Under the pieces are notes generated by a model, which was given only the letters and a program-made list of their open reading frames with translations, was not told where the DNA came from and ran no database searches. Shown piece after piece: positions 3,567 through 39,508 of a stretch of DNA of 64,000 bases. The stretch is from Vicinamibacterales bacterium (lineage in GTDB: Bacteria; Acidobacteriota; Vicinamibacteria; Vicinamibacterales; 2-12-FULL-66-21). The stretch's first letter is position 1, and every line of letters starts with the position of its first letter. The stretch spans positions 2,148 to 66,147 of the forward strand of contig JBMDXB010000142.1 in assembly GCA_048594885.1 (NCBI GenBank). The letters are read 5' to 3'. A program made the translations under genes and the position numbers.

Positions 3567-3678
3567 TCCCGGTCAATGCTGAATGCTGAATGCCAAATGC
3601 TGAACGGGGTGCTGCTTGGCCCATTCCCGCATTCCCCGCATTTTCAGCATTTGGCATCAGCATTCAGCATTGACCCGG
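3567..3678. repeat. Imperfect 35-bp-arm inverted repeat built from GCTGAAT heptamers, exactly filling the gap between two convergent stop codons; likely bidirectional terminator
   Basis: Left arm cccggtcaatgctgaatgctgaatgccaaatgctgaa. Right arm ttcagcatttggcatcagcattcagcattgacccgg is the reverse complement with one indel. It is flanked by the stops at 3564-3566 and 3680-3682. Confidence 0.8.
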
Positions 3679-6751: not shown

Positions 6752-7666
6752 ATGATTGCTCTCACTCTTCTGCTCGCGCTCATGGTGGGTCAGGCAACCG
6801 CGCCGCAGTCTGCCGCTCAACCCGACGAGACCCGGCAGCAGCTGAGTCAGGCGCAGAAGCTGATCCAGGCAGGGAACGTCACCGAGGCCGTCGCGATCCT
6901 GAAGCGCGCCGTGACGGCGTCGCCGCAGTCGTTCGACGCGCACCACGCGCTCGGACGCGCGCTCGATCTCGAGGGGCAGCACGCCGACGCGCGGCGTCAT
7001 CTGGAGCAGGCGGCCGCGCTCGCGAACGACAAGAACCGCAACAGCGCGCTGTCCGCGATGGGCGTCTCCTGGGCGTTCGAGGGCAAGGCGGACGAAGCCG
7101 CGCGCTACTACCAGCGCATCTTCGACGCGCAGATGCAGGCGAACGACCGCGGCGGCGCCGCCGGCACCGCCAACGCGCTCGGGCGCATCTTCCTCGAGTC
7201 GGGAAATCTCGACAAAGCGGAGGAGTGGTACCGGACCGGGATCGAGACGGCAAAGAAGGTCCCCGAGCTGCCACCCGACCAGGCCGCGCTGTGGGAATGG
7301 CGCTGGCACAACGCACAGGCGCGCATCGCCGCCCGTCGCAAGAACGCGGCTGCCGCACAGACGCACGCCGCGGAAGCGAAGGCGCTGCTCGACAAGGCTG
7401 GCAACGAGAACCAGCGCCCGTTCTACCCGTATCTGCTCGGCTACATGGCGTTCTACGCCGGCGACAACAAGCGTGCGATCGATGAGCTGATGCAGGGCGA
7501 TCTGAAGGACCCGTTCGTCCTCGGGCTGATCGCGCAGGCGTACGAGAAGCTGGGCGACAAGGCGAAGGCGCGCGAGCACTACGAGAAGGTGATGGCGCTG
7601 CCGTCGCACTCGATCAACACGGCTTTCTCGCGGCCGCGCGCGCGGGCGTTCCTTGCACGTCGCTGA
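6752..7666 (+). CDS. Secreted tetratricopeptide-repeat protein
   Basis: N-terminal signal peptide. Helical TPR-like repeats (AHHALGRALDLEGQHADARRHLEQAA and others). Confidence 0.6.
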   Translation: MIALTLLLALMVGQATAPQSAAQPDETRQQLSQAQKLIQAGNVTEAVAILKRAVTASPQSFDAHHALGRALDLEGQHADARRHLEQAAALANDKNRNSALSAMGVSWAFEGKADEAARYYQRIFDAQMQANDRGGAAGTANALGRIFLESGNLDKAEEWYRTGIETAKKVPELPPDQAALWEWRWHNAQARIAARRKNAAAAQTHAAEAKALLDKAGNENQRPFYPYLLGYMAFYAGDNKRAIDELMQGDLKDPFVLGLIAQAYEKLGDKAKAREHYEKVMALPSHSINTAFSRPRARAFLARR

Positions 7667-7790
7667 TCGCTGATCGCTGATCGCGTAACGCCGATCGGCG
7701 AACGTCGATCAGCGATCAGCGATCGGCGATCGGCGATCGGCGATCGGCGATCAGCGATCGGCGATCAGCGATCGGCGCCGAGCCACGAGT
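7660..7790. repeat. Heptamer palindromic minisatellite: (GCTGATC)3 followed by (GATCAGC/GATCGGC)~10
   Basis: Tandem 7-mers and their reverse complements, visible directly in the sequence. It overlaps the last codons of two convergent genes. Confidence 0.85.
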
Positions 7791-9066: not shown

Positions 9067-9077
9067 CGTCAACTCCC

Positions 9078-9310
9078 AAAGGCCAAGGGCCAAGGACCAA
9101 GCGGCTCAAGTTCCAAGGCCCAAAGACCAAAGACCAAAGACCAAAGACCAAAGACCAAGGCCAAGACCAAGGCCAAAGACCAACGGCCAAAGGGCGCTCA
9201 CTTGGAGGTTGGCCTTTGGTCCGTTGGGAGTTTCGATGCTTGGTCCTTGGCCTTTGGTCGTTGGCAGTTTCGATGCTTGGTCCTTGGTCTTTGGTCGTTG
9301 GTCTTTGACA
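9078..9310. repeat. Heptamer palindromic minisatellite, GGTCTTT/CCAAAGA variant, with a nested 22-bp direct repeat
   Basis: (GACCAAA)5 and CCAAGG units are mirrored by (TTTGGTC)n and CCTTGG units. gtttcgatgcttggtccttgg occurs twice. The repeat lies between the MFS stop and the acyltransferase start. Confidence 0.85.
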
Positions 9311-11825: not shown

Positions 11826-11992
11826 AGACATCCGTCCCTGGTCCCTGGTCCTGGTCCCGAGTCCCTGGTCCCTGGTCCCGAGTCCCTCGTCCCGAGTCAG
11901 TCCCGGGACCAGGGACCCGAGACCAGGGACCCGAGACCAGGGACCCCGAGACCAGGGACCCGTGACCAGGGACTAGGGACCAGGGACGGGGA
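11826..11992. repeat. Heptamer palindromic minisatellite: (GGTCCCT)n ... (AGGGACC)n
   Basis: About 10 units of GGTCCCT/GGTCCCG are followed by about 10 units of GAGACCAGGGACCC and similar. The M28 peptidase stop codon lies inside the right arm. Confidence 0.9.
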
Positions 11993-14261
11993 TGCGCGGC
12001 GCGAGAATCCACGCCGCGTTCGCTCCCCAGACAGTGCGTTCCTGCGGCAGCCATGCGGGCAGCGACTGCCAGCCGGTCCCGCCCGGAATCCGGCCCGACG
12101 TGACGACCATGCGGGTGGCGGCAAACGGCGACGGATCGGTGGTGCCGAAGTACGCGCGCCAGACGACGCCGTCGGCGGGCGGCGCGACGTATGTCGCGCT
12201 CCAGCGGCCGTTGCGGACGATGCCCGGCAGGTTGCTGCGGGCGGGTTTCTGGCCCGCAGGCGCGACGAACGTGACGGTGACTCCCGGCTGCGACGGCACG
12301 ACCGTCGCCGTCACCTCGACGCCGCGTTCGACCGGCGTCTGCGTGAACGCGGTGATGTGCGCCGGCGCCGGACCGAGTGCCGGGCCGCGCGTGCGAAAGA
12401 CGAACGCGAACGGCCAGCGCACCATCGGTACGCTCACGGCGGGAGCGTCGGTGGCCGGCACCCATCCACCGGGCGCGCCGCTCTCGAGATCGAGACCCGG
12501 CTCCGTCGAAGCCACTTCCCACACCGCGTTCGCCGCGTCGCCATCCTGGATGGCCCGCAGGTACCTGCGCAGCGGCCGGTCTTCCGTGTAGGCAGGCGCC
12601 GCGTAGGCGAATCCAGCGGCAATCGCAATCGCGGCGAGGCACGCAGCGGTGATGAGCGGCGGCCGGGGGAGAGGCGTCGGCCGCGCGGCTGCCGCGAGGA
12701 ACGGCGGCGCCACCATCAAGCCCACGGCGGCAACTACGGCCGCGTAGACGTATACCGGCGTCACGACCGGCAACCGGCCGAAGACAGCCACGACGAACCG
12801 CGACAGCTCGATGCCGTTCCGCAGCCAGAGGGTCCCGGCCACGGCCAGCACGACCACGGAGGCGGCGCGCACGAGCGGCTCGTTGCGGGTGGGCACGATC
12901 GTCAGCAGCACGCCGGCCGCAAAGAGCGGCACGGTCCACAGGTAGGCGGCTGCTGGCCCGGCCCACAACGAGACCGACGCGAGCACGATCCACACCGGAA
13001 GCGCGACGCTCCAGACAACCGACGGATGCCGCGTGAGATGCGCGCGCGGCGGCAGCCAGGTTCCGATGCGCGTTGCCGCCCACCCGAGAGCGATTCCCGT
13101 GGCTGCGAGCAGAATCAGCAGCCGATCCGGGTGCGCATACCAGGGGCTGTACGATTCCCGCGCCGCCCGCAGCGCCCACGTGGCCGCAACCATTCCGGCT
13201 GCCGAGACCACGAACGCGATCGCGGCCCACACGAACGTCAGCAGCCAGCGCAGGACGCCCCCTATCCCGACCGCCGTCGCGGTGACCTTCACGACGGCGA
13301 TCGCGCCGAACACGAGCGCGGCCGCGGCTATCAGCCAGCCCGTGCGCGGCCCGTAGCTGACGGCGGCCTTCGGGCCGGCATCGAAGTACGTCGCATCGGA
13401 TGCGTTGCGCTGCGTGATGTCGACGTCTTGCAGCGCCGCCAGGATGGTAGCGGCGTTCTCGCCGGCCTCGCGCAGCGCCGCCGGCTCGATCCGCGCCGGC
13501 GTGTCGCGCGCGGTGTGGTACCCGTAGCTGTTGCCGACCACCGCGAAGTTCAGTCCGGGAATGTCGTGCCGCTTGAAGATGGTGAAGTCCGTGTCGTTCG
13601 GCAGGCGCTTGTACACTTCGATGCCCATCGAACCGCCGCGCGGATGCGGCGCGTGCCGCGCCCAGGTCTTCACGAGCCACGCGTTGCCAGGTCCCGTCTC
13701 GAACAGCATGACCGGCCGCGACGTTCCGCTGGCCTCGAAATTCAGGTAGGCCCTCAGCCGATCGGTGACCTCCCGATCGGTGACCAGGGCGGCGGCGCCC
13801 ATCAGGCCGGCTTCCTCGGCATCGGTGACCAGCACGAACAGCGACCACCGGCGCCTCTCCCTCGACGCGAACGTTCTCGCCGCTTCCAGCGAGACCGCCA
13901 CTCCGAACGCATCGTCGCCGCCGCCGGGAGTGTCGAGCCCGGAGTCGTAGTGCGAGACGAGCCCGATCGCCTCCGGCCGTTCGCCGGCGAGCGTGGCGAT
14001 GATGTTCGACACGCGGGCGGTGCGCCCGAGCTCGGGCCGGCGCGCGTCGGTTTCCTGCACGCGCACGTCGAAGCCGTACAGCCGCAACTGGTCGATGATG
14101 TAGCTGCGCGCGCGCGCATTCTCAGGCGTGCCGACCCAGCGGCTGCCGATCGTGCCGGCGAGCATTTCCACGTGCGAACGGGCGTTCTCCTCGACGAAGA
14201 GTGCGGCAGGGCGGGAGCAGGCGGAAAGGAAGAGGACGGCGAAGACGGAAACAGCGCGCAT
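11973..14261 (-). CDS. M28 family metallopeptidase fused to a polytopic membrane domain
   Basis: M28 motifs (HYDS, DDAFG, EEAGLMG) with about 8 predicted TM helices in the central part. Confidence 0.75.
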   Translation of the reverse strand: MRAVSVFAVLFLSACSRPAALFVEENARSHVEMLAGTIGSRWVGTPENARARSYIIDQLRLYGFDVRVQETDARRPELGRTARVSNIIATLAGERPEAIGLVSHYDSGLDTPGGGDDAFGVAVSLEAARTFASRERRRWSLFVLVTDAEEAGLMGAAALVTDREVTDRLRAYLNFEASGTSRPVMLFETGPGNAWLVKTWARHAPHPRGGSMGIEVYKRLPNDTDFTIFKRHDIPGLNFAVVGNSYGYHTARDTPARIEPAALREAGENAATILAALQDVDITQRNASDATYFDAGPKAAVSYGPRTGWLIAAAALVFGAIAVVKVTATAVGIGGVLRWLLTFVWAAIAFVVSAAGMVAATWALRAARESYSPWYAHPDRLLILLAATGIALGWAATRIGTWLPPRAHLTRHPSVVWSVALPVWIVLASVSLWAGPAAAYLWTVPLFAAGVLLTIVPTRNEPLVRAASVVVLAVAGTLWLRNGIELSRFVVAVFGRLPVVTPVYVYAAVVAAVGLMVAPPFLAAAARPTPLPRPPLITAACLAAIAIAAGFAYAAPAYTEDRPLRRYLRAIQDGDAANAVWEVASTEPGLDLESGAPGGWVPATDAPAVSVPMVRWPFAFVFRTRGPALGPAPAHITAFTQTPVERGVEVTATVVPSQPGVTVTFVAPAGQKPARSNLPGIVRNGRWSATYVAPPADGVVWRAYFGTTDPSPFAATRMVVTSGRIPGGTGWQSLPAWLPQERTVWGANAAWILAPRIPVPGP

Positions 14262-14330
14262 TCGCCGCCATTCTAGCGAGCCTGCGCCGGAGACCCTAAT
14301 CCCGCACCGCGCAGCCGGACGGCTGCGGCG

Positions 14331-21915: not shown

Positions 21916-23162
21916 CACGCGCGCTCCAGGCGGACGCCGATCGACGCCGCGTGCGCGGTAAGGCCTTCGGCGTTGGCCAGCGCGATTGCTGCCGGACCGA
22001 TGCCTTTTAAGCCCGCACGCGTAACCGTCTGCACCGAGTTGACGCGGACGAAATCCGCGGCGCTGAGGCCGCCTCGCGCGCGCGCGGCGCCGCTCGTCGG
22101 CAGCACGTGATTCGATCCGGTCGCGTAGTCGCCAGCGGCCTGCGCGCTGAAGCGGCCAACGAAGATCGTGCCGGCACGTGTCAGCCGCTTCGCCACCGCC
22201 GCCGAGTCGCACACGGCGTGCTCCGGCGCCATCCGCTCGCTCAGCGCGATCGACTCGTCCAGCGACGTGGTGACGACGATGCCGCCGTTGCGGCGGATGG
22301 CAACGCTCGCCGGCCCCTCCGCGGGCATCTGGCGCTCCACCTGTCGAGCGACGGCGTTCGCCAACCGCTTGCTCGGCGTCAGCAGGATCGCCCGTGCGTC
22401 CGGATCGTGCTCGGCCTGAGCAAGAAGGTCCGCGGCAATCCATTCGGGGTTGCCGCCGGCCGACACGATCAGGATCTCGCTGGGGCCGGCGAAGAAATCG
22501 ATGGCACAGTCGGCCGCGACGAGCGCCTTTGCGCTCGCGACGTAGGCGCTTCCGGGACCGACGATCTTGTCGACGCGCGGCACGGTGCGTGTTCCGTACG
22601 CGAGCGCGGCGATCGCGTGCGCGCCGCCGACGCGAAGCAGCGACGTGACGCCCGCCTCGAGTGCCGCGAACATGACGGTCGGATCCGGCTTCGGGCAGAC
22701 GGCAATCACTTCGCGCACGCCGGCCACGCGCGCGGGGATCGCCGTCATCAGCAGCGAGGAGGGAAGCGGGTAGCGGCCGCCCGGCACGTAGCAGCCGACG
22801 CGATCGAGTGGCGTGACCCGCTGCGCGATGCGCACGCCCGTGACCGGAGCCACCCTCCGCGAGCGGGGCAGTTGTGCCCGCGCGACGGTGCGGATGTTGT
22901 GCGCCGCCGTGCGGATAGCGCGGCGGACGAGCGCCGGCACGGGGCGAATCGCCTCCTGCATCTCCTCGCGTGCGATCGTCAGCGGCGCGCCGGCTGGCAG
23001 CCCGTCGAACCGCCGCGCGAACTCGAGCAGCGCCCGATCGCCCTCGGCGCGCACGCGATCGACGATGTCGGCGACGCGACGCTCGAGCGCCGGGTCGCGG
23101 CGCGGCCGCCGATCGAGCAGCGCGGCAACGGCACGCCGGTTGGACGATGGAATGATTCGCAT
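21915..23162 (-). CDS. hisD: Histidinol dehydrogenase
   Basis: MRIIP ... EGDRALLEFARRFD ... CYVPGGRYPLPSSLLM ... AQAEHDPDA are HisD motifs. The start shares 1 nt with the hisG stop. Confidence 0.9.
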   Translation of the reverse strand: MRIIPSSNRRAVAALLDRRPRRDPALERRVADIVDRVRAEGDRALLEFARRFDGLPAGAPLTIAREEMQEAIRPVPALVRRAIRTAAHNIRTVARAQLPRSRRVAPVTGVRIAQRVTPLDRVGCYVPGGRYPLPSSLLMTAIPARVAGVREVIAVCPKPDPTVMFAALEAGVTSLLRVGGAHAIAALAYGTRTVPRVDKIVGPGSAYVASAKALVAADCAIDFFAGPSEILIVSAGGNPEWIAADLLAQAEHDPDARAILLTPSKRLANAVARQVERQMPAEGPASVAIRRNGGIVVTTSLDESIALSERMAPEHAVCDSAAVAKRLTRAGTIFVGRFSAQAAGDYATGSNHVLPTSGAARARGGLSAADFVRVNSVQTVTRAGLKGIGPAAIALANAEGLTAHAASIGVRLERA

Positions 23163-24055
23163 CACATCACGATCTTGTTGAGCGGGTACTCGACGATGCC
23201 CTGTGCGCGGGCCGCCTTGAGGCGCGGAATCAACTCGCGCACGGTGCGCTCCTCGATGATCGTGTTCAGCGCGACCCACTCGCCATCGCTGAGCGGTGAC
23301 ACCGTCGGCCGCTGCAGCGCCGGCAGGAGCGACAGCACGTTCTGGAGATCCGAGACCCGGACGTTCAGCATGATGCCGACGCGCCCCTGTGCCTCGATGG
23401 CTGCTTTCAGCAGCAGCGCGATGTTGTCCACCTTCGTGCGCTTCCATTCGTCGTTCAGCGACGCGGCGTTCGCGATCAACTGCGTGTTGGATTCGAGAAC
23501 CGTGTCGATGACGCGCAGCCGGTTCGCGCGCAGCGACGAGCCGGTCTCGGTGACCTCGACGATCGCGTCGGCGAGCGTCGGCGGCTTCACCTCGGTGGCG
23601 CCCCACGAGAACTCGACCGTGACGTTGACGCCATGCTTCGCGAAGTACGCCTGCGTCGCGCGCACCAGCTCGGTCGCGACGGTGGCACCTTCGAGATCGC
23701 GCACGTCGCGGTAGCGCGAGTCCTCAGGCACCGCGAGCACCCAGCGGACCTTGCCGAAGCTTTGCTTGGCATAGACGAGATCGGCGATCGGCACGATCGA
23801 AGCGCCGCCGCCGTTGGCCGCGGCGTGCTCGGCGATCCAGTCCTGTCCGGTGAGTCCCGCGTCGAGCACGCCGTCGGCGACGTAGCGCGCCATCTCCTGC
23901 GCGCGGATCAGCATGCACTCGATCTCGGGGTCGTCAATCGTCGGAAAGTACGACCGCGAGCTCGCGTAGATGTTGAACCCCGCCCGCGCGAACAACTGGA
24001 TCGTCGCGTCCTGCAGCGACCCCTTCGGTATTCCCAACCGCAGCTTTTGAGTCAT
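23162..24055 (-). CDS. hisG: ATP phosphoribosyltransferase (long form with C-terminal regulatory domain)
   Basis: [27 protein letters not shown]. The ORF track's upstream extension is encoded by the G-rich repeat and was discarded. Confidence 0.85.
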
Positions 24056-24125
24056 CGTTCTCTCGGCCCCCCGGCCCCCCGGCCCCCCGGCCCCCGGCCC
24101 CCCGGCCCCTCGGCCCCCCGGCCCC
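24056..24125. repeat. G-tract minisatellite (GGGGGGCC)n on the transcribed strand, filling the whole hisI-hisG intergenic spacer
   Basis: The plus strand reads ctcggccccccggccccccggccccccggcccccggccccccggcccctcggccccccggccccc. The mRNA strand carries eight or more G5-6 tracts. Confidence 0.85.
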
Positions 24126-24437
24126 CTAGCTCCCAAACTCCCTGAAGCAGCTTCGGGTTCCGGTGTGGCAGACGTTGCCGTCGCCGAGGCGCGTCACCTT
24201 CAACACCAGCGAGTCATCGTCGCAATCGACGAGGATCTGTTCGACCTTCAGCCGGTTGCCCGACGTCTCGCCTTTCATCCACAGCTTCTGGCGTGTGCGG
24301 CTGTAGAAGGTCGCGAAGCCGCTCTCGAGCGTGCGATCGAGCGCGTCCTGGTTCATGAAGCCGACCATCAGCACTTCGCCCGAAGCGTTGTCCTGAATCA
24401 CGGCCGGAATGAGCCCGTCCAGTTTTGAAAAGTCCAT
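24126..24437 (-). CDS. hisI: Phosphoribosyl-AMP cyclohydrolase
   Basis: [29 protein letters not shown] ... CHTGTRSCF identifies HisI. Confidence 0.85.
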
Positions 24438-24630: not shown

Positions 24631-26370
24631 CTATCGTGCGGTCAGGCGCGGCGTCAAGCCGGCGGGGATCGACACCTTCGAATCCGCGCTGCGCGTGTCG
24701 TTCGCGCCGTAGGCGACACCGTCGGGTCCGATCCAGATCGAATGCGCGTCACCCTGGCGTCCCTGCGCGCGCACGTCGTGCCCGAGCGCCTTCAATTGCG
24801 CGAGGATCTCTGCCGTCACGCGCCCGTCGTCTTCGAGCGTCGCGCGATCCGGCAGCCACTGATGATGCAGTCGAGTCAGGTCTACGGCCTCGCGGCCATT
24901 CAGCCCGTACTCCGTCACGCCGAGGACAACGGTCAGCACCGTGTTGATGATCGTCCGCCCTCCGGGCGACCCCGTCAGCAGCACCACCTTCCCGTCCTTC
25001 AGCACCATCGCCGGCGTCATCGAGCTGAGCATGCGCTTGCCGGGATCGATCACGTTGGCGGACGTGCCGATGTCGCCGGTCAGGTTCGTCTCGCCCGGCT
25101 TCTTGTTGAAATCGCCCATCTCGTTGTTCAGGAGGAACCCGGCGCCTTTGACGACCACGCGCGAGCCGTACCCTCCTTCGAGCGTGTAGGTGTTGACCAC
25201 GGCCATGCCACTGCGATCGATCACCGAGAAGTGCGTGGTCTCATCGGACTCGGTGGTGGCGACGGTGACGATGTCCTTGCCGAGCTCGACGCTGCTCGCG
25301 GCCTTGTTCATCTCGATGCCGGAGGCAAGCTGCTTCGCGTACGGCTTCGACGTGAGCCGCGCAACCGGCACGTTCACGAAGTCCGGATCGCCGAGATGCC
25401 GCGCGCGATCGAGGTACGCGCGCTTCATCGCCTCGATCTGGAGGTGCAGCGCCGGCGCCGTGAGCAGGCCTTTCGATTTCAGATCGAACGGCTCGAGGAT
25501 GTTGAGCATCTCGATGAGCGCCACGCCGCCCGAGCTCGGTGGCGGCATCGACACGATCTCGTGGCCGCGATACCTGCCGCGCACGACCTTGCGCTCTTTC
25601 GCCCGGTAGGCGGCGAGGTCCCGCTTCGTGATGATTCCGCCGTTGGCCGCCATGTCCTCGGCGATGCGGTCGGCGATCCAGCCCTTGTAGAAGACGTCGG
25701 GTCCGTCCGTAGCGATGGCGCGCAGCGTGCGCCCGAGATCCGTGAGCACGAGTCGGTCGCCTTCCCGCCATTGGCCGCCGCCCGGCTTGCCGTACGCGGC
25801 GACGGAGGCAGGAAACCTGCCCATCGCGCCTTCGAGCTGCGCGCTCAAGCCGCGCGCGAGGCTGGCGGACATCGTGAAGCCCTGCTCCGCGAGCTCCACC
25901 GCAGGCATGACGACGTCCTTCCATGGCAACTTGCCGTACTTGCGATGCGCGAGCTCGAGGCCGCGGACGGTGCCGGGAACGCCGGGCGCCAGGTATCCAG
26001 ACGCCGTCAGGCTGCGGTCGATCTTGCCGTCCGCGCCGAGATACATCGTCCGCGTCGATTTGAGCGGTGCCCGCTCGCGATAGTCGAACGCCGACGTCTT
26101 CCCGGACGGTGTGCGTACGATCATGAAGCCACCGCCGCCGATGTTGCCCGCGCTCGGGTGCGTGACGGCGAGCGCGAACGCGGTTGCGACAGCCGCGTCG
26201 ACAGCATTGCCGCCGCGCGCCAGAACCGATGCACCTGCGTCGCATGCCGGCGCGGACGTGCACACGACCATGCCGGTTCGCGACGGGACGCCCGGCTCCG
26301 CCACGGCGCGCACGGGCACGCGCACGAGCGCAATCGACAGGCACACAACAAGCCAGCGACAAGATCTCAT
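24631..26370 (-). CDS. ggt: Gamma-glutamyltransferase
   Basis: Signal peptide, then GGT motifs (TTHFSVIDRSGMAVV, GGYGSRVVV), giving 579 aa. Confidence 0.85.
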   Translation of the reverse strand: MRSCRWLVVCLSIALVRVPVRAVAEPGVPSRTGMVVCTSAPACDAGASVLARGGNAVDAAVATAFALAVTHPSAGNIGGGGFMIVRTPSGKTSAFDYRERAPLKSTRTMYLGADGKIDRSLTASGYLAPGVPGTVRGLELAHRKYGKLPWKDVVMPAVELAEQGFTMSASLARGLSAQLEGAMGRFPASVAAYGKPGGGQWREGDRLVLTDLGRTLRAIATDGPDVFYKGWIADRIAEDMAANGGIITKRDLAAYRAKERKVVRGRYRGHEIVSMPPPSSGGVALIEMLNILEPFDLKSKGLLTAPALHLQIEAMKRAYLDRARHLGDPDFVNVPVARLTSKPYAKQLASGIEMNKAASSVELGKDIVTVATTESDETTHFSVIDRSGMAVVNTYTLEGGYGSRVVVKGAGFLLNNEMGDFNKKPGETNLTGDIGTSANVIDPGKRMLSSMTPAMVLKDGKVVLLTGSPGGRTIINTVLTVVLGVTEYGLNGREAVDLTRLHHQWLPDRATLEDDGRVTAEILAQLKALGHDVRAQGRQGDAHSIWIGPDGVAYGANDTRSADSKVSIPAGLTPRLTAR

Positions 26371-26389: not shown

Positions 26390-26550
26390 GGTCCCTCGTC
26401 CCTGGTCCCTGGTCGCGCGTCCTTGGTCGCGAGTCCCTGGTCACAGGTCCCTCGTCATAGGTCGATGCGTTGCCGATGACGGGACCCGCGACCCGGGACC
26501 CGCGACCCGGGACCAGGGACCCGCGACCCGGGACAAGGGACCAGGGACCA
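26390..26550. repeat. Heptamer palindromic minisatellite (GGTCCCT/GGTCGCG ... CGGGACC/AGGGACC) in the divergent ggt/glgX promoter region
   Basis: Tandem 7-mers and their reverse complements, read directly from the sequence. Confidence 0.85.
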
Positions 26551-26658
26551 ACGGACGCGTGCTCCTGTGGCACAGGACTTGAACGCGCGTAGGGGCGGAC
26601 CTTGATCGGCCCTATAGGACGGAGCAAGCGCCGCCCCCACGTCGCACAAGTCCTGAAC

Positions 26659-28788
<2,130 letters not shown>

Positions 28789-28789
28789 G

Positions 28790-28835
28790 TCCCTGGTCCC
28801 TGGTCCCGGGTCCCTGGACCGGGGCGCGCCCCTCA
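28790..28835. repeat. Short GGTCCCT-type hairpin repeat downstream of glgX (terminator-like)
   Basis: gtccctggtccctggtcccgggtccctggaccgggg, with the CCGGGTCC/GGACCGG stem. Confidence 0.6.
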
Positions 28836-29603: not shown

Positions 29604-30269
29604 ATGCACATCTGGCAGATCACCTCGTTCACGATTGCGATGGCACTGCTGGCGACCGTGCTGATGCTGCCGCCCGGCATTCTGGTGGGCTGGCTGCTTG
29701 CACGGCGCCGCTTTCCCGGTCGCGTGCTGGTCGAGACGCTCGTGTCGCTGCCGCTCGTGATGCCGCCGGTCGCGACCGGGCTGCTGCTCCTGACGCTCGT
29801 CGCGCCGGCGGGTCCCGTCGGACGCCTGCTCGCGCACGCCGGCATCGACATCGTCTTCACCTGGAAGGGCGTCGTGCTGGCGATGGCGGTAATGGGACTC
29901 CCGCTCGTCGTCCGCAGCGTGCGCGCGGGTGTGGAGCAGGTGGACAGCCGGCTCGAGGCGGTCGCGTCGACGCTCGGCGCGCCGCCGTGGCGCGTGTTCT
30001 ATTCGATCACGCTGCCGCTGGCGCTCCCCGGCGTGCTCGCCGGCGCGATCCTCGGGTTCGCGCGCGCGCTCGGCGAATTCGGCGCGACGATCATGGTGGC
30101 CGGCAGCATTCCTGGTTCGACGCGAACGCTTGCCATCGCGATCTATTCCTTCGTTGAGACCGGCCGCGAGAACGACGCACTAACCCTCGTGGCGATCAGC
30201 GGTGCGATCGCGTTCGCGGCATTGTGGTTGTCGAACTGGCTCTCCGCGCGGACGGGGCTGCGGTCGTGA
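29604..30269 (+). CDS. modB: Molybdate ABC transporter permease
   Basis: MHIWQITSFTIAMALLATVLMLPPGILVGWLLARRRFPG with the EAA-loop region GAPPWRVFYSITLPLALPG. Confidence 0.8.
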   Translation: MHIWQITSFTIAMALLATVLMLPPGILVGWLLARRRFPGRVLVETLVSLPLVMPPVATGLLLLTLVAPAGPVGRLLAHAGIDIVFTWKGVVLAMAVMGLPLVVRSVRAGVEQVDSRLEAVASTLGAPPWRVFYSITLPLALPGVLAGAILGFARALGEFGATIMVAGSIPGSTRTLAIAIYSFVETGRENDALTLVAISGAIAFAALWLSNWLSARTGLRS

Positions 30270-30976
30270 TCACGCTCGACTTCGTGCTGCGGCAGGGAGA
30301 GTTCGAGCTCGAGATCCACGAGCGGATCGACGTCCGCGTCACCGCGCTGTTCGGTCCGTCGGGCGCCGGCAAGACCACGGTGCTCGACGCGATCGCGGGG
30401 CTGCGCACGCCGGCGCACGGAACGATTGCCGTCGGAGAGCGGCAGCTCTTTTCGTCGGGGGAGGCGGGGAGCCGGGGGGCCGGGGAGGCGGGGAGCCGGG
30501 GAGCCGGGGGGCCGGGGAGCCGGGGGGCCGGGGAGCCGGGGGGCCGCACGATCAATCTGCCGCCGCATCAGCGTCACGTCGGCTACGTCACCCAGGACGT
30601 CGCGCTCTTTCCGCATCTGAACGTGCGGCGCAACGTGCTCTACGGTCAGCGGCACGGGCAGAAGCTCGATCTGACGACGGTCGCCGGGATGCTGGAGGTC
30701 GGCTCGCTGCTCGACCGCCACGTCCACCAGCTCTCAGGCGGAGAGAAGCAGCGCGTCGCGCTCGCGAGGGCGCTGATGTCGGCGCCGTCGGTGCTGCTGC
30801 TCGACGAGCCGCTCGCAGCCGTTGACGTCGAGCGGCGCCGCCGGATCCTGCCGTATCTCGAGCGCGTTCGCGATCAGCTCGCGGTGCCGATCATCTACGT
30901 GACGCACGATCAGGAGGAGCTGCGGCGCATCGCCGACCGCGTCATCACGCTCGCCGACGGCCGTGTGACTACGTAG
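30266..30976 (+). CDS. modC: Molybdate-type ABC transporter ATP-binding protein carrying an in-frame Gly-rich minisatellite insertion
   Basis: Walker A GPSGAGKT, signature LSGGEKQR and Walker B LLLDEP. The GTG start overlaps the modB stop. Residues GEAGSRGAGEAGSRGAGGPGSRGAGEPG are encoded by the G-tract repeat at 30458-30546. Confidence 0.75.
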   Translation: MITLDFVLRQGEFELEIHERIDVRVTALFGPSGAGKTTVLDAIAGLRTPAHGTIAVGERQLFSSGEAGSRGAGEAGSRGAGGPGSRGAGEPGGRTINLPPHQRHVGYVTQDVALFPHLNVRRNVLYGQRHGQKLDLTTVAGMLEVGSLLDRHVHQLSGGEKQRVALARALMSAPSVLLLDEPLAAVDVERRRRILPYLERVRDQLAVPIIYVTHDQEELRRIADRVITLADGRVTT

Positions 30977-31799: not shown

Positions 31800-31880
31800 G
31801 CAGTTCCGGCCAAAGCATAACATCGCTTTGCGATCCGCGATCCGCGCTCCGCGATCAGCGATCCGCGATCAGCGATCCCC
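31800..31880. repeat. Tandem heptamer repeat (GCGATCC/GCGATCA)~8 without an obvious inverted partner
   Basis: cgatccgcgatccgcgctccgcgatcagcgatccgcgatcagcgatccccgat. Confidence 0.75.
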
Positions 31881-31882
31881 GA

Positions 31883-32692
31883 TTACAGATCCCGCCGCTG
31901 AAAGCGCCAGTAGGCTAGGGCCGCGAAAAGGGCGGTGGCCGCCCAGAGGACGATCAGGTTGCGCCAGATTGGCGCGGTGCCGGCGAGGATCGATGCGCCA
32001 GGGTAGTAACGGAACGGAGACAGCCACGCGATCGGCCGTACACGCGGCCAGACGATCGCCAGGAAATCGATCAAATACATCGCGATTGTCGTCAGCGCCG
32101 CCACCGTGAACGCGACGCTCCATCGCTTCGCCCCGGCGGCGACGGCGAGGCCGAACGCCGCGCAGCACCATGCGAGGCTCGCCATGTGCGCGATGAGGAG
32201 GAAGATCGTCCAGGCTCGCGGCCACGCCGCGACGGACGGTGCGAACACGTTGAGGCCGGCGGCGGTGCCGGCGGCCATGGCCGAGACCAGCAGGACGACG
32301 GTCGCTGTGGACAGCAGCAGCGACCGCGTGATGACGCGACGTCGTGGCAGCGGGCGCGCGAGCAGCAGATCGACGCGTCCGCTCTCCACGTCGTGCGCCG
32401 GCTCGGTCGCGAAGTACATGGCCGCCAGCGTCACGACCATGACGACCAGCGGGTGGAAATAGCCGAACGCAACCATGCCCTGGAACGACGCCAGCCAGAG
32501 CGCCTGCTCGCCGAGTCCCCGCTGCAGGAACGCCGGGAGGAACTCCGCCATGCGCCCGAACGACAGCGTCGATTCCATCGTCGCCGCCTGTCCCGCCAGC
32601 AGGAACTGGAATCCGCCGACGACAGCGGTGCACGCGACGAGCGCGTACCACGCCTGACCGGCGGAGCGCTGGATCAGCGTCAGCAGTCTCAC
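31883..32692 (-). CDS. ABC-2 type transporter permease
   Basis: 6-TM hydrophobic protein. GTG start (VRLLTLIQRS) 9 nt after the ATPase stop. Confidence 0.7.
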   Translation of the reverse strand: MRLLTLIQRSAGQAWYALVACTAVVGGFQFLLAGQAATMESTLSFGRMAEFLPAFLQRGLGEQALWLASFQGMVAFGYFHPLVVMVVTLAAMYFATEPAHDVESGRVDLLLARPLPRRRVITRSLLLSTATVVLLVSAMAAGTAAGLNVFAPSVAAWPRAWTIFLLIAHMASLAWCCAAFGLAVAAGAKRWSVAFTVAALTTIAMYLIDFLAIVWPRVRPIAWLSPFRYYPGASILAGTAPIWRNLIVLWAATALFAALAYWRFQRRDL

Positions 32693-33773: not shown

Positions 33774-34862
33774 TCAACGCCGCGTCCTGGCGAGCGCGCG
33801 CAGCGCGCCGAGCAGCGCGTCAGCCGCAGGGTTTGCCGTGCCCTGACCGGTAATCAGGATCTCGCCGTCCTGCCGCGGCAGCTCGAACGTATCGGCCGCC
33901 ACCGTCGCGACGACGGACCGGTTGAGCAGCTTGTAGGACACTGAGTACGGCTGCTTCAGGAACGTGCCGCTCGCGGCGAACTCCTGGATGCGGAAGTCAG
34001 CCGCATCGACGACCAGCCGCGACTGCGTGAGGTCCAGCATCGCGTTCAGGTTCGCGGTGTTCACCTGTGGCATCTCGATCACGTACTGCTTGCCCTGGGG
34101 CGTCTCCACTTCCTGCAGCAGCTGCTGACCGCTGGACTGCATCATCGCGATCGACGTCTCGAGATAGAGACGCTCCAGCTCGGGGAGCGTCGGCACATCG
34201 GTGGCCGGCACGGAGAACTCGAACCGGCAATACCGATCGTCGACCCGCATCAGCGACACACGCGTCCGCGCGATCGGATCCTGGGCGATCGACGTCAGCA
34301 GCCGCCCGTCCTGGCTGTACGACGCGAACTTGAACCGTCCCCGCGTGTCGTGATCGATCGCCTGCCGAATCCGGTAGGTACCGTTGGCATCGTCCGGCAT
34401 CAGGTCGCGCGGCATGCCGTCGAGTACGAGCTCGTACTCTCTGAGCTCGACGCCACGCTCGGCGGCCGACAGCGTGCTTGCCGATTTCGACAGGATCTCC
34501 GCCGCCGACACCGTCTCCGGACCGCGTACCGCGGGCACGATGAATACGAGCGCGACGACCGCGGCAACGACCGCCGCGGCGCTCCAGCCGGCACGTTGCC
34601 AGATCGGACGCGGCGTGACGTCGCGAAGCCGCGTCGCGCCTGCGGCCGGCTGCCCGGCGAGAATCGCGCGCTCGATACGCCCGGCCGCCGCGGACGGCAC
34701 GGCCGTCCGCTCCGCGATCGCATGCTCGAGCGCCGCCAGGCGGCGCCGCCGCTCGTCGACGAGCTCCTTGCACCGCCGGCATTCGGCGGCATGGGCCATG
34801 GCATCGGCCGGCGCTTCGTTGTCGGCCGCCGCTTGAATTTCGACATCAGTCAGACATCTCAT
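33774..34862 (-). CDS. Anti-sigma factor (zf-HC2, single TM)
   Basis: MRCLTDVEIQAAADNE ... HAAECRRCKELV with one TM helix. Start ATG overlaps the sigma gene stop (ATGA). Confidence 0.65.
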   Translation of the reverse strand: MRCLTDVEIQAAADNEAPADAMAHAAECRRCKELVDERRRRLAALEHAIAERTAVPSAAAGRIERAILAGQPAAGATRLRDVTPRPIWQRAGWSAAAVVAAVVALVFIVPAVRGPETVSAAEILSKSASTLSAAERGVELREYELVLDGMPRDLMPDDANGTYRIRQAIDHDTRGRFKFASYSQDGRLLTSIAQDPIARTRVSLMRVDDRYCRFEFSVPATDVPTLPELERLYLETSIAMMQSSGQQLLQEVETPQGKQYVIEMPQVNTANLNAMLDLTQSRLVVDAADFRIQEFAASGTFLKQPYSVSYKLLNRSVVATVAADTFELPRQDGEILITGQGTANPAADALLGALRALARTRR

Positions 34863-35386
34863 GACGACGATCTCCCGTACGCGTGAGAAAGGTTGGCGCC
34901 GGCCGCGTATGCGCGCTCCCAACGCTCGAGCGCTCGCGCGAGCAGCCGTCCGACCGAGGAGGGCCTGATACGAGATGCGGCGGCGATCTCGCGATATGTC
35001 AGCCCTTGCGCGCGCAACGCGACCAGCAATCGATCGCGCCGCGAGAGTTTCCGCAGCGCATCGCGCACCGCCTGAAGATGACCGTCCTCGTCGCGCAACG
35101 CCGGCGGCGCGACCTGCGGATCGTGCTCCGCGGACCACGGCATCCACCGGTTCCGCCGCCGCATGCGATCGGTGCACGCGTGCGCGGCAACGGTGAACAG
35201 CCAGGCGCGCAAGTTGTCCGCCGCGCCACCGCCGTTGAGATGGCCGAGCAGCTTCAGGTAGGTCTCCTGAACGACGTCCTCGGCATCCTGATGGTGCCGC
35301 AGCACCACGAGTGCGAATCGATACAGCGCTCCGCCGTGCTGCTCGAACAGCGTCAAGACCTCGCGACGCGCGCTGTCAGGCTCCAT
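34859..35386 (-). CDS. RNA polymerase ECF-type sigma-70 factor
   Basis: Region 2 (YRFALVVLRHHQDAEDVVQETYLKL) and region 4 (LTYREIAAASRIRPSSVGRLLARA). Confidence 0.85.
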   Translation of the reverse strand: MEPDSARREVLTLFEQHGGALYRFALVVLRHHQDAEDVVQETYLKLLGHLNGGGAADNLRAWLFTVAAHACTDRMRRRNRWMPWSAEHDPQVAPPALRDEDGHLQAVRDALRKLSRRDRLLVALRAQGLTYREIAAASRIRPSSVGRLLARALERWERAYAAGANLSHAYGRSSS

Positions 35387-35468
35387 TCATGCCTCTCGGC
35401 CGGACGTCTATATAACGCGCCGGACCATCCGTTTGTGACAGCCGGCTGACGGGGGAATAATCCCACGC

Positions 35469-35915
35469 ATGGACGCATTTCTCGACGCCGCGATCGCAGA
35501 GGCGGAGGCCGGCCTCCGTGAGGGCGGGATTCCAATCGGGTCGGTCATCGTCCATCGGGGGCGCATCATCGGGCGAGGCCACAACCGTCGCGTGCAGCAA
35601 GGAAGCGCGATCCTCCATGGCGAGATGGATGCGCTCGAGAAGGCCGGCCGGCAGCCGGCGGCCGTGTATCGCGAATGCGTCCTCTACACGACGCTGTCGC
35701 CCTGCGCGATGTGCACGGGCGCGATCCTGCTCTACGGCATCCCGACCGTCATCGTCGGCGAGAACCGGACGTTCATGGGCGAGGAGGAGCTGCTGCGGTC
35801 ACGCGGCGTGTCAGTGGAGGTACGGCAGGACCCGCGCTGCATCCGGATGATGGAGGGGTTCATCGCAGCGCATCCGAAGTTGTGGAATGAAGATATAGGC
35901 GTCCCTGGTCCCTAG
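35469..35915 (+). CDS. Nucleoside (cytosine-type, Fcy1-like) deaminase, CMP/dCMP deaminase zinc-binding fold
   Basis: HGEMDALE ... SPCAMCTGA zinc ligands. The C-terminus ...WNEDIG resembles yeast Fcy1. Confidence 0.75.
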   Translation: MDAFLDAAIAEAEAGLREGGIPIGSVIVHRGRIIGRGHNRRVQQGSAILHGEMDALEKAGRQPAAVYRECVLYTTLSPCAMCTGAILLYGIPTVIVGENRTFMGEEELLRSRGVSVEVRQDPRCIRMMEGFIAAHPKLWNEDIGVPGP

Positions 35916-36243
35916 TCCCTGGTCACGGGTCCCCGGTCACGGGTCCCCGGTCACGGGTCCCGGGTCACGGGTCCCGAGTCCCCCCGGTCACGGGTCCCGA
36001 GTCCCCCCGGTCACGGGTCCCGAGTCCCCACGGTCACGGGTCCCGAGTCCCCACGGTCACGGGTCCCGGCTCGTGACGAGGGACGTGACCTGTGACCAGG
36101 GACCTGTGACCTGTGACCAGGGACCTGTGACCTGTGACCAGGGACCTGTGACCAGTGACCAGTGACCAGTGACCAGGGACCAGGGACTAGGGACCAGGGA
36201 CTAGGGACCAGGGACCAGGGACTAGGGACCAGGGACCAGGGAC
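35901..36243. repeat. Largest heptamer palindromic minisatellite (~340 bp): (GGTCACGGGTCCCC)n ... (GTGACCAGGGACC)n between convergent genes
   Basis: At least 12 14-bp double units on the left and their reverse complements on the right. It exactly fills the gap between the deaminase stop (35915) and the lysC stop (36252). Confidence 0.9.
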
Positions 36244-36251
36244 GCGCGTGT

Positions 36252-37553
36252 CTACGGCACCGGCTGCGGTTCGCGCTCGATGAACGTGCGGTGCAGCGCT
36301 TTCACCGCCTCGTCCACGCCGCCGCGATCGATCAGCCATGTCGTCCGGAACGATGACGTCGACAGACCGCGCGTGGCGATACCGGCGCCGTCCAACGTCG
36401 ACGTCCCTCGGCGGACAGTCTCGTGGCTCGCGTTGATTCCCGCGCCGACGACGCTCACGGCGCCGAGACCGTCGAGCAGCCGTACGCCGTCGCTGAAGGC
36501 GGTGCTCAGCTCAGCGCGCACGCGCGGCTCGTCGTGCAGGTTCTCGCGCGAGACGATGAGCGTGACGCCGTCGCCAGGCGCGCCGTACGACGCGACGTGG
36601 AGCTGCTTCCCGGCGACGCTGCGGGCGTCGAGCATTTCCAGCAGCCGGGTGGCGTTGCCCGCGGCCTGCAGCACGATCACGTCCTTCTCGCTCGCCACGC
36701 CGACGACCGTTCCCGGCGGGCGTGGCGCGAACTTGCGGACGACGGTCCCATCCGCCGACGGATCCGCTCCGGGCAGCGGCGCCGACGTCGCGCGCGCGTA
36801 GATCGCGATGCCGGCCTGCTTGGCGAACTCCACCGCCTGCGCGTTGAGCACCTTCGCGCCCGACTCGGCGAGCTCCTGCGTCTCCTCGTACGACAGCACG
36901 CCGATCCGCTGCGCGCCGTTGACGACGCGGGGGTCCGCCGTATAGACGCCGTCGACATCGGAGCAGATCTCGCACCACTCCGCGCCGAGCGCCGCGGCCA
37001 TCGCCACCGCCGTCGTGTCGCTGCCGCCGCGGCCCAGCGTCGTCACCTCTCGCCGGTACGAGACGCCCTGGTAGCCGGCGACGACGACGACGCGGCCGCG
37101 AGCGAGCTCGTCCTGCACGCGGAAGGGGCGCACTTCGATGATTCGCGCGTCGATGTGGCGATCGTTGGTGATGATGCCCGACTGGCTGCCGGTGAAGCTG
37201 ATGGCGTCCCCACCGAGCTCGCGGATGGCAATCGAGAGCAGCGCCATCGCGATCCGCTCGCCGGCGGAGAGGAGCATGTCAAGCTCCCGGCGATCCGGAT
37301 TCGGGGAGATCTTCTTGGCGAGGGCGAGGAGTTCGTCGGTGGTGTGGCCCATGGCGGAAACGACGACCACGACGTCGTGGCCCTCCCGCCTGGTGCGCAT
37401 CACCCGTTCGGCGACCTGACGGATCTTGTCCGAATCCGCGACGCTGGTGCCGCCGTATTTCTGGACGACTGTCGACACGCCGTTCGCTCCAGCAATCACC
37501 ATACCGCCGTCTGCGGTCGGGGGTACCAGGAGAACGGGAGAAAGGGGAGACAT
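36252..37553 (-). CDS. lysC: Aspartate kinase
   Basis: [10 protein letters not shown] ... [15 protein letters not shown] with tandem ACT domains. The start is uncertain between 37553 (ATG), 37502 (ATG) and 37571 (TTG). Confidence 0.85.
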
Positions 37554-37652
37554 GTACCTTTTCTCAGACAAGAAGAAAAAGAGTTCTCCCTTCCTCCCCT
37601 TCTCCTGCTATACCCAGCGGTCGTGTAGATTACTGGCGCGAAAGGCGGTCAC

Positions 37653-38264
37653 ATGGGCGTTCTGCGACGGTGGTTCGGGCCGAGCAAGGAAGAGATCTGG
37701 CGGCAGCTCAGTGAGCGGATCGGCGGCCGCTACGTCGAGTCGCGGCTGCTGAAAGGCGACCGCGTCGAAGCGTCGCACGGCGACTGGACGGTCACGCTCG
37801 ACAGCTACGCGGTTTCCACCGGCAAGGTGACGGTGGTGTACACGCGGCTGCGCGCCCCGTATGTGAATCCGACCGGCTTCCGCTTCACGGTCTACCGCAA
37901 GAGCCTCTTCAGCGGCCTGGGGAAGCTGTTCGGCATGGAGGACATCGAGATCGGCGACCCGCAGTTCGACGAGAAGTTCATCATCAAAGGCACCGACGAC
38001 TCGCTCGTGCGCCAGTTGCTGTCGAATCCGAAAGTCCGCGAGCTGATGGCGCAGCAGCCGGACATCAACTTCAGCGTCAAGGACGACGAGGGCTGGTTCG
38101 GGCCGAAGTTTCCGGAGGGCGTGGACGAACTGCATTTCGTCGCCACGGGCATCATCAAGGACCTCGAGCGCCTGAGGCTGCTCTACGAGCTGTTCGCCGA
38201 GACGCTCGACGAATTGTGCCGGATGGGATCGGCCTACGAAGGATCCGTCGAGGTGAAGCTCTGA
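37653..38264 (+). CDS. Hypothetical protein (soluble, conserved-looking)
   Basis: 203 aa with good coding periodicity, divergent from lysC. Confidence 0.5.
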   Translation: MGVLRRWFGPSKEEIWRQLSERIGGRYVESRLLKGDRVEASHGDWTVTLDSYAVSTGKVTVVYTRLRAPYVNPTGFRFTVYRKSLFSGLGKLFGMEDIEIGDPQFDEKFIIKGTDDSLVRQLLSNPKVRELMAQQPDINFSVKDDEGWFGPKFPEGVDELHFVATGIIKDLERLRLLYELFAETLDELCRMGSAYEGSVEVKL

Positions 38265-39373: not shown

Positions 39374-39508
39374 GCCACAGCGTTTTGACACGGAATACAC
39401 GGAGGACACGGAGGAAACGGAGGTCACGGAGACAAATATTCACTCTTCATTGAGAAACTACCAGAAGACTCCGTGTTCTCCGTGACCTCCGTGTTCAAAC
39501 GCTGTGTA
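39374..39508. repeat. Nonamer palindromic minisatellite (CACGGAGGA)4 ... (TCTCCGTGA)n with an AT-rich centre
   Basis: cacggaatacacggaggacacggaggaaacggaggtcacggagac ... gactccgtgttctccgtgacctccgtgttcaaacgctgtg, with outer arms cagcgttttgacacgg/ccgtgttcaaacgctg. Confidence 0.85.

Follow-up and report, generated by a model that had tools for sequence, protein, structure and literature searches.

According to the summaries given in PMC4679880 and PMC4692102, heptanucleotides are the most over-represented long simple sequence repeats (SSRs) in bacteria (Mrazek et al., 2007), and the same summaries describe the heptamer SSRs of prokaryotes as mostly intergenic, composed of lineage-specific unit families and ascribed to polymerase slippage. 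Here we describe an array of 343 bp (positions 35901–36243), composed of two inverted arms of 7-nt units of the GTCCCTG/GTCACGG heptamer family, in a 64,000-nucleotide stretch of DNA from a soil Vicinamibacterales bacterium (hereafter the window; GC content of 67.5%), where it lies between the convergent genes of a cytosine deaminase and an aspartokinase (lysC). The array is an unusually large and fast-evolving example of an already reported, poorly understood kind of repeat.

The closest described system is that of the GGGAATC arrays of Xanthomonas campestris/axonopodis, of which approximately 185 were reported, including 70–75 opposed pairs per genome, with one array on each strand (Rehm et al., 2015, PMC4692102). 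These arrays contain 2–26 units (mode 4) and are strongly biased towards stop codons, which they adjoin or cover. Their length varies between related species while the type is kept, and transcripts often start or stop within them; they were read as G-quadruplex (G4) motifs, not as hairpins, and form G4 in vitro (PMC4692102). The array at 35901–36243 resembles the Xanthomonas pairs in its head-to-tail 7-nt units, which follow the pattern G3N4 on one strand, in its inverted arms able to form a stem-loop, in its location at and over a stop codon (here that of the deaminase gene) and in the different lengths observed between species at the same site. Its unit family, with four sites in the window, may likewise be scattered over the genome. 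It differs from them in being found in Acidobacteriota, in its unit and in its size (24 + 25 units), and also because here several unrelated unit families, many of them without G-tracts, are present per genome.

Other long heptanucleotide SSRs include the TAACTGA repeats of Beggiatoaceae, which are mostly direct and located upstream of start codons, with one inverted case among 170 sets (PMC4679880), and the Geobacter GGGACCG x4 elements (PMC2700814). These, as well as the cyanobacterial STRR heptamers, share with our array the tandem 7-nt units, the mostly intergenic location and the restriction of unit families to lineages, but they are mainly direct, single-arm repeats, whereas the class described here is defined by two complementary, hairpin-forming arms. 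In cyanobacteria, STRR heptamers can lengthen the P12 helix of the RNase P RNA.

The repetitive extragenic palindromic elements and bacterial interspersed mosaic elements (REP/BIME) of proteobacteria are presented, in one account, as structured extragenic elements proposed to terminate transcription or to protect mRNA 3' ends (PMC3733652). The array shares with them the position at gene 3' ends or inside operons, and its effect is likely similar, which would make it a functional analogue. A REP unit has 20–40 nt, is by itself an imperfect palindrome with a GTAG/CGTC tag, and owes its mobility to RAYT transposases; the unit observed here, in contrast, is a non-palindromic 7-mer without terminal GTAG/CGTC, and a hairpin results only from two opposed arrays. 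The array also resembles a canonical intrinsic terminator, since it places a GC-rich hairpin immediately 3' of stop codons, but it has no T/U-tract and its stem is approximately 10 times longer, with many bulges. In the literature on repeats of Acidobacteria or Vicinamibacter, we found no description of the inverted-array class for that phylum.

Architecture and predicted fold of the array

The deaminase gene (35469–35915, + strand) encodes a 148-aa protein of the yeast FCY1 type (Pfam PF00383; PDB 1uaq, E value of 1e-42 over residues 5–144), while lysC is located on the − strand (36252–37571), its longest open reading frame (ORF) starting at 37571 and the 408-aa orthologues suggesting a GTG start near 37478. 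The two stop codons (TAG at 35913–35915 for the deaminase and 36252–36254 for lysC) leave a gap of 336 nt between the genes, which the array fills, as had been noticed from the letters of the sequence: its first 15 nt belong to the deaminase gene, and 8 nt separate its other end from the lysC stop. Tandem Repeats Finder (TRF), unit parsing and alignment of the arms also confirmed the coordinates and architecture of the mirror-array minisatellite of approximately 340 bp that had been placed between the convergent deaminase and lysC genes in the sequence-only reading.

The left arm (35901–36073) is composed of 24 heptamer-type units, identified by TRF and unit parsing, namely three GTCCCT[G/A], four (GTCACGG GTCCC[C/G]G) and then (GTCACGG GTCCCGA GTCCCC[C/A]CG)n; TRF assigned a period of 7 with 23.0 copies to 35901–36069. 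The right arm (36077–36243) has 25 units, which correspond, as reverse complement, to ten GTCCCT[G/A], three GTCACTG and then (GTCACAG GTCCCTG GTCACAG)n, with TRF periods of 7, 14 and 21 for 36073–36243 (22.7 copies at period 7, and 8.2 copies of a 21-mer with 92% identity). Hardly any spacer separates the arms, the hairpin apex being located approximately at 36074–36076 (CTCG-TGA-CGAG). Both arms share two unit types, in different order, and unit parsing revealed variants private to each arm (CGG in the left, C[A/T]G in the right). The arms match by 71% in a global alignment and by 76–84% in the best gap-free local pairs, with mismatches about every 7 bp. The right arm consists, on the + strand, of GGGACCA-type G3N4 units in succession, with at least ten consecutive ones, and the complement of the left arm contains 15 GGGAC motifs. 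A higher-order repeat of 23 nt within the left arm (35959–36068, TRF, 4.8 copies with 97% identity) indicates recent expansion within that arm. The left arm had been credited with at least 12 copies of the 14-mer GGTCACGGGTCCCC; this count is too high, as we found eight copies of the 13-nt core GGTCACGGGTCCC and two exact copies of the 14-mer. Two other assignments were rejected, a CRISPR array, because the units are contiguous 7-mers without spacers whereas CRISPR repeats have 23–55 nt and unique spacers, and a coding repeat, because the 64-aa ORF at 36162–36356 is merely the repeat read in frame.

The overlap with the deaminase gene has consequences for the protein. In most of 80 metagenomic homologues the deaminase C-terminus reads ...LWNEDIGV*, and the valine is for this reason taken as native, only PGP and the stop codon (35904–35915, + strand) being clearly added by the repeat. 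The proposal that the repeat contributes a C-terminal VPGP holds for PGP, together with the stop codon, and fails for the valine. From the comparison with these homologues, the repeat appears to have overrun the ancestral deaminase stop, adding PGP and a TAG that is itself the unit variant GTCCCTA. None of the 80 homologue loci adjoins lysC, and they provided the native C-terminus and further arrays, not orthologous spacers.

The RNA of the + strand is predicted to fold with −255.1 kcal/mol, versus −187.2 ± 6.9 kcal/mol for shuffled sequences (z of −9.8), and that of the − strand with −248.9 kcal/mol (z of −7.4); with DNA parameters, the single-strand fold has a z of −7.8. Either strand is predicted to form a single long imperfect hairpin, with a stem of approximately 134 coaxial pairs over 359 nt and many bulges. 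A hairpin of approximately 170 bp per arm had been proposed, together with the statement that a uniform length across strains combined with a lack of structure beyond random expectation would speak against it. All three z values exceed random expectation, and the long hairpin is recovered on either strand, as a stem of bulged pairs between arms of 71% global match and not as a perfect 170-bp duplex. The fold energy of the array, which would be used from both sides, is nearly symmetric between strands, as expected for bidirectional use. No Rfam family matched anywhere in the window at its gathering score, and by E-value the array retrieved only sub-threshold look-alikes of microRNA precursors, caused by the long hairpin.

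Orthologous spacers and a putative transcript-end hairpin

We established the orthology of the lysC–deaminase–sigma region by the identity of all three proteins. The gene order (lysC, convergent deaminase and sigma gene) is common to the window and its closer metagenome relatives, and the spacer between lysC and the deaminase gene has 20 nt in L162 (lysC 88% identical), 139 nt in L161 (92%), 201 nt in L163 (87%) and 336 nt in the window (100%). In L162 it consists of GGGGGCCACTCCCCC followed by TTTTTT, a textbook intrinsic terminator, in L161 of a GCGGATN/NATCCGC array hairpin (−72 kcal/mol, z of −6), in L163 of an AATCCCT/AATCGCG array (z of −14) and in the window of the GTCCCTG/GTCACGG array; in L164, which belongs to the same species as L163, the contig breaks inside the array. 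The deaminase of L163 ends in ...WNEDTGIPNP*, with a repeat-encoded tail (IPNP) there too. Across these spacers, the unit sequence of both arms has changed together between lineages, with the hairpin being kept. The length variation that had been anticipated for this site is therefore borne out between species; exact-protein look-ups of LysC and the deaminase for conspecific strains gave no match, the nearest other LysC being approximately 91–92% identical.

In L068, which has the closest lysC in the genome collection (84% identical), there is neither a deaminase gene nor a repeat, and a gene for an extracytoplasmic function (ECF) sigma factor directly follows lysC (7225–7330). This adjacency implies that the deaminase gene and the array (34859–36252 of the window) stem from an insertion or rearrangement particular to a lineage that includes L161, L162 and L163.

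A second, graded series is observed in another orthologous spacer, that of bla–yjbQ, which has 10 nt and no hairpin in L167, two units of CACGAAGG per arm in L165, four to five units of CACGAAGG per arm in L170 and L171, and 5 + 3 units of ACACGGAGG in the window. The lysC/deaminase spacers (a terminator and arrays of 139, 201 and 343 bp with different units) constitute a natural series at one site, and both series make it testable that arrays grow from terminator-type hairpins and can replace them. The main value of the locus lies in this orthologous series, by which the arrays are linked to the slot of a terminator and their growth is seen to be stepwise.

On this basis we favour, with moderate confidence, the reading in which the array, a quasi-palindromic microsatellite, is a putative bidirectional transcript-end hairpin of the deaminase and lysC genes, grown by within-arm slippage, its extra size being mostly neutral. 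A small terminator-type hairpin would have served as seed and each arm would have been lengthened by replication slippage in steps of 7 nt. Since a stem of repeated units pairs in any 7-nt register, unit-sized insertions and deletions would be tolerated, and growth would be bounded only by the coding sequences, the deaminase stop having even been overrun. In RNA, the hairpin would still serve both transcripts, as a termination signal and/or as a barrier to 3'-exonucleases. The transcript-end role is suggested by the canonical terminator present in the same slot of L162 and has a precedent in the Xanthomonas pairs, and within-arm slippage by the arm-private variants and by the near-identical higher-order units, the latter, present in each arm, pointing to recent slippage. 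Copying between arms (quasipalindrome template switching) was considered as a homogenising force and is unsupported at this locus, because the unit variants are arm-private.

Inverted arrays in the window and in related loci

The inverted-array class is genome-wide, is present in several phyla and uses many different units, a point that the sequence-only reading had overlooked, as it had the canonical terminator of a close relative in the equivalent slot and the similar class known from Xanthomonas. The window alone holds approximately ten inverted arrays of this class, with unrelated units. Four sites, all within 25 kb, belong to the GTCCCTG family: the array at 35901–36243, a palindromic array at 11834–11987, a palindromic array of 160 bp at 26390–26549 and a short single-arm member (GTCCCTG x4, + strand) at 28789–28817, which begins directly after the stop of the gene 26602–28788. 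GTCCCTGGTCCCTGG is the exact start of all four, and its complement closes the three that are palindromic; with lengths in the family from 29 to 343 bp, the array between the deaminase gene and lysC is, as proposed, the largest copy. The 11834–11987 array shares with it an identical terminal stretch of 33 nt, GTCCCTGGTCCCTAGTCCCTGGTCACGGGTCCC, including the TAG variant, and the unrelated gene 11973–14330 (− strand) ends in ...RIPVPGP*, with the same repeat-encoded VPGP* end and TAG stop as the deaminase. The 26390–26549 array nearly fills the divergent spacer between the genes 24631–26370 (− strand) and 26602–28788 (+ strand), a position that corresponds to a promoter or 5' region and not to a gene end.

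Inverted arrays of other units abut a stop codon at 3575–3671 (AATGCTG), 9076–9307 (CCAAAGA) and 39387–39496 (the 9-mer ACACGGAGG), and a TCGCTGA/ATCGGCG array at 7660–7777 overlaps the stops of both convergent genes. We also identified three single-arm tandem arrays with no complementary partner nearby: CGGCCCCC x8 at 24064–24126, overlapping the maximal ORF 23162–24193 (− strand), GGGGAGCC x11 at 30458–30546, overlapping the maximal ORF 30158–30976 (+ strand), and GCGATCC x7.7 at 31830–31883.

We surveyed 129 related loci with a GC content of at least 60% (0.98 Mb), a sample that is biased and partly redundant. The final detector was a count of coaxial pairs, because a strict detector, based on complementary TRF consensus units, overlooked the array at 35901–36243, whose arms have different dominant variants, and a criterion of unbranched hairpins overlooked large arrays. 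In total, 47 arrays of short units were palindromic, spanning 80 nt in the median and 136 nt at the 90th percentile. With 359 nt, the array of the window is the largest, followed by its own orthologue in L163 (216 nt), a ranking that is relative to this sample and to short-read assemblies, which under-sample long arrays. Among the 31 arrays of the strict detector, units of 7 nt are the most common (19 arrays), followed by those of 8 nt (8 arrays) and by those of 9 and 10 nt (2 arrays each). A stop codon lies within 30 nt of an array edge in approximately 28 of the 47 arrays. Convergent spacers, counted without redundancy, fold with z below −3 in 25 of 99 cases, and about half of those 25 are arrays. 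Both the closeness to stop codons and the structured convergent spacers speak for a transcript-end role.

Arrays of other units were also observed directly 3' of lysC (GGGCTNA in L014 and AGCTCTC in L016) and 3' of the deaminase gene (L083, L086, L092, L119, L131, L142 and others), with plain GC hairpins in place of arrays 3' of the deaminase gene in L082, L088 and L091. Loci labelled Verrucomicrobiota/Chthoniobacterales have similar elements with AT-richer units (GAGTTTT/CAAAACT in L028 and AGTAAGC/GCTTACT in L055). Some of the surveyed genomes contain, additionally, GC hairpins of REP-like appearance with a trailing CTACG, such as two tandem copies of GCCGGGGCTTAAAAGCCCCGGCCTACGTACG (L163 4900–4985, L161 1–25 and, in L091, downstream of the deaminase gene); these resemble GTAG-tagged REP elements and coexist with heptamer arrays in those genomes. 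Short-read metagenome contigs terminate inside or at arrays in L164, L171, L086 and L092, and arrays of this type probably interrupt assemblies systematically, long arrays being probably under-counted. In practical terms, arrays of this class break short-read assemblies, give proteins repeat-encoded tails and would escape terminator predictors that require a U-tract.

It is conceivable, although we regard it as rather unlikely, that, across several phyla of soil bacteria (Acidobacteriota, Verrucomicrobiota and, from the proteobacteria, Xanthomonas), inverted short-unit arrays generally stand in for canonical intrinsic terminators in an evolvable form, acting as hairpins free of a U-tract and tolerant of register, whose unit families would spread by copying within the genome. 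The 33-nt identical termini and the common VPGP* ends at two loci of the window would then hint at conversion between ectopic copies or at insertions targeted to the ends of genes.

Alternative explanations and neighbouring features

The array is a GC-rich stem-loop directly after a gene, as a terminator is expected to be, but several observations weigh against its assignment as a transcript-end hairpin. Neither arm is followed by a T-tract (the sequence next to the right arm is GCGCGTGTCTAC, and that on the other strand GCCTATATCTTC), and a scan with a consensus terminator found no site at the array. One member of its own family (26390–26549) occupies a divergent spacer, and 6 of the 41 classifiable arrays of the survey are divergent. 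The spacer types of these 41 arrays (15 convergent, 20 codirectional and 6 divergent) do not differ significantly from the background (170, 404 and 158, respectively), the gene calls having been made with a crude ORF picker based on GC3. The size itself is not required, since close relatives have a spacer element of 20 nt or none. In favour of the assignment, the comparison of strands in single-gene-end arrays, in which the better fold belongs to the sense RNA in 12 of 17, to the antisense in 4 and to neither in 1 (mean of −3.6 kcal/mol), shows the pattern that G-U pairing is expected to give if selection acts on RNA; the test is small and its one-sided sign test gives an uncorrected p of approximately 0.04. 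Also in its favour, canonical terminators with a hairpin and a T-tract show no enrichment over 19 kb of the window, with 9 found versus 8.2 expected. A Rho-loading signal in the form of a consistent C-rich-arm-first polarity was rejected, as the first arms, read by eye, are C-rich, G-rich or neutral depending on the array.

The alternative that survives best, which we consider possible although doubtful, is that of a functionless by-product of slippage, whose arms expanded wherever non-coding space allowed, as neutral or slightly deleterious filler. The near-background proportions of spacer types, including the divergent spacer in the window, are what such filler predicts, as are the quick turnover, with arrays absent or tiny in close relatives, the filling of spacers as far as the stop codons and beyond, as would result from unchecked expansion, and the near-identity of the higher-order repeats, indicative of recent growth. 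Pure slippage does not explain, however, why the complementarity of the arms was kept despite a complete change of unit between lineages, nor does it explain the presence of a canonical terminator in the corresponding slot of L162 or the tendency of sense RNA to outfold antisense.

A role at the DNA level seems improbable to us, whether as a cruciform, a G4 in the GGGACCA arm, an array bound by nucleoid or topology proteins, or a hotspot of recombination or replication pausing. It would be consistent with the single-strand DNA fold, with the recurrence of one unit family at four places in 25 kb, a distribution that binding sites could have, and with the consecutive G3N4 units of the right arm and the GGGAC motifs in the complement of the left, the same pattern as in the Xanthomonas GGGAATC arrays that form G4 in vitro (PMC4692102). 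Most arrays of the class, nevertheless, lack G-tracts (for example AATGCTG, TCGCTGA, TTGGTGA and CACGAAGG), an arm complementarity of 71–84% with a mismatch about every 7 bp disfavours cruciform extrusion, and the asymmetry between sense and antisense folds is not expected from a role in DNA.

We consider it very unlikely that the array is a non-autonomous mobile element, similar to a miniature inverted-repeat transposable element (MITE) or to REP/BIME, inserted at gene ends. The common start and complementary end of the family members, the 33-nt identical end that gives two genes the same VPGP* and the absence of the unit family from 171 related loci could be so explained. Nonetheless, we observed no consistent target-site duplication (GGC/GCG and ATCC/GGGG were read as flanks, and CAACGG on both sides is confined to the 26390 array), the copies range from 29 to 343 bp with different internal unit orders, the units are neither palindromic nor tagged with GTAG/CGTC, and the orthologous series corresponds to stepwise growth in place; a MITE was rejected because, in spite of the shared inverted termini, target-site duplications are inconsistent and lengths so variable. 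The least probable explanation, an assembly artefact of the array or of its length, might be invoked because the source is a contig of a metagenome-assembled genome (MAG) and because the short-read contigs of relatives break inside arrays, but the array is internal to its contig, where the genes on both sides are intact and their order is conserved, relatives that were assembled independently have arrays at the same site, and each arm has a distinct, ordered higher-order structure.

The 5' side of lysC also contains a structured spacer. In the divergent spacer 37479–37652, between lysC (− strand) and the gene starting at 37653 (+ strand), we identified a hairpin of approximately 100 nt (minimum free energy of the RNA of −90.8 kcal/mol, z of −8.0), in which a purine-run arm, GGAGAAGGGGAGGAAGGGAGAA, lies opposite a pyrimidine-run arm. 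Neither a lysine riboswitch nor any other Rfam family was found in the window, this spacer included. As a last observation, the lysC of MAGs labelled Chthoniobacterales/Verrucomicrobiota (L004–L055, GC content of approximately 54%) is 66–77% identical to that of Vicinamibacterales, a closeness equal to that of many Acidobacteriota, which suggests that either a transfer of lysC across phyla or binning errors may have occurred.

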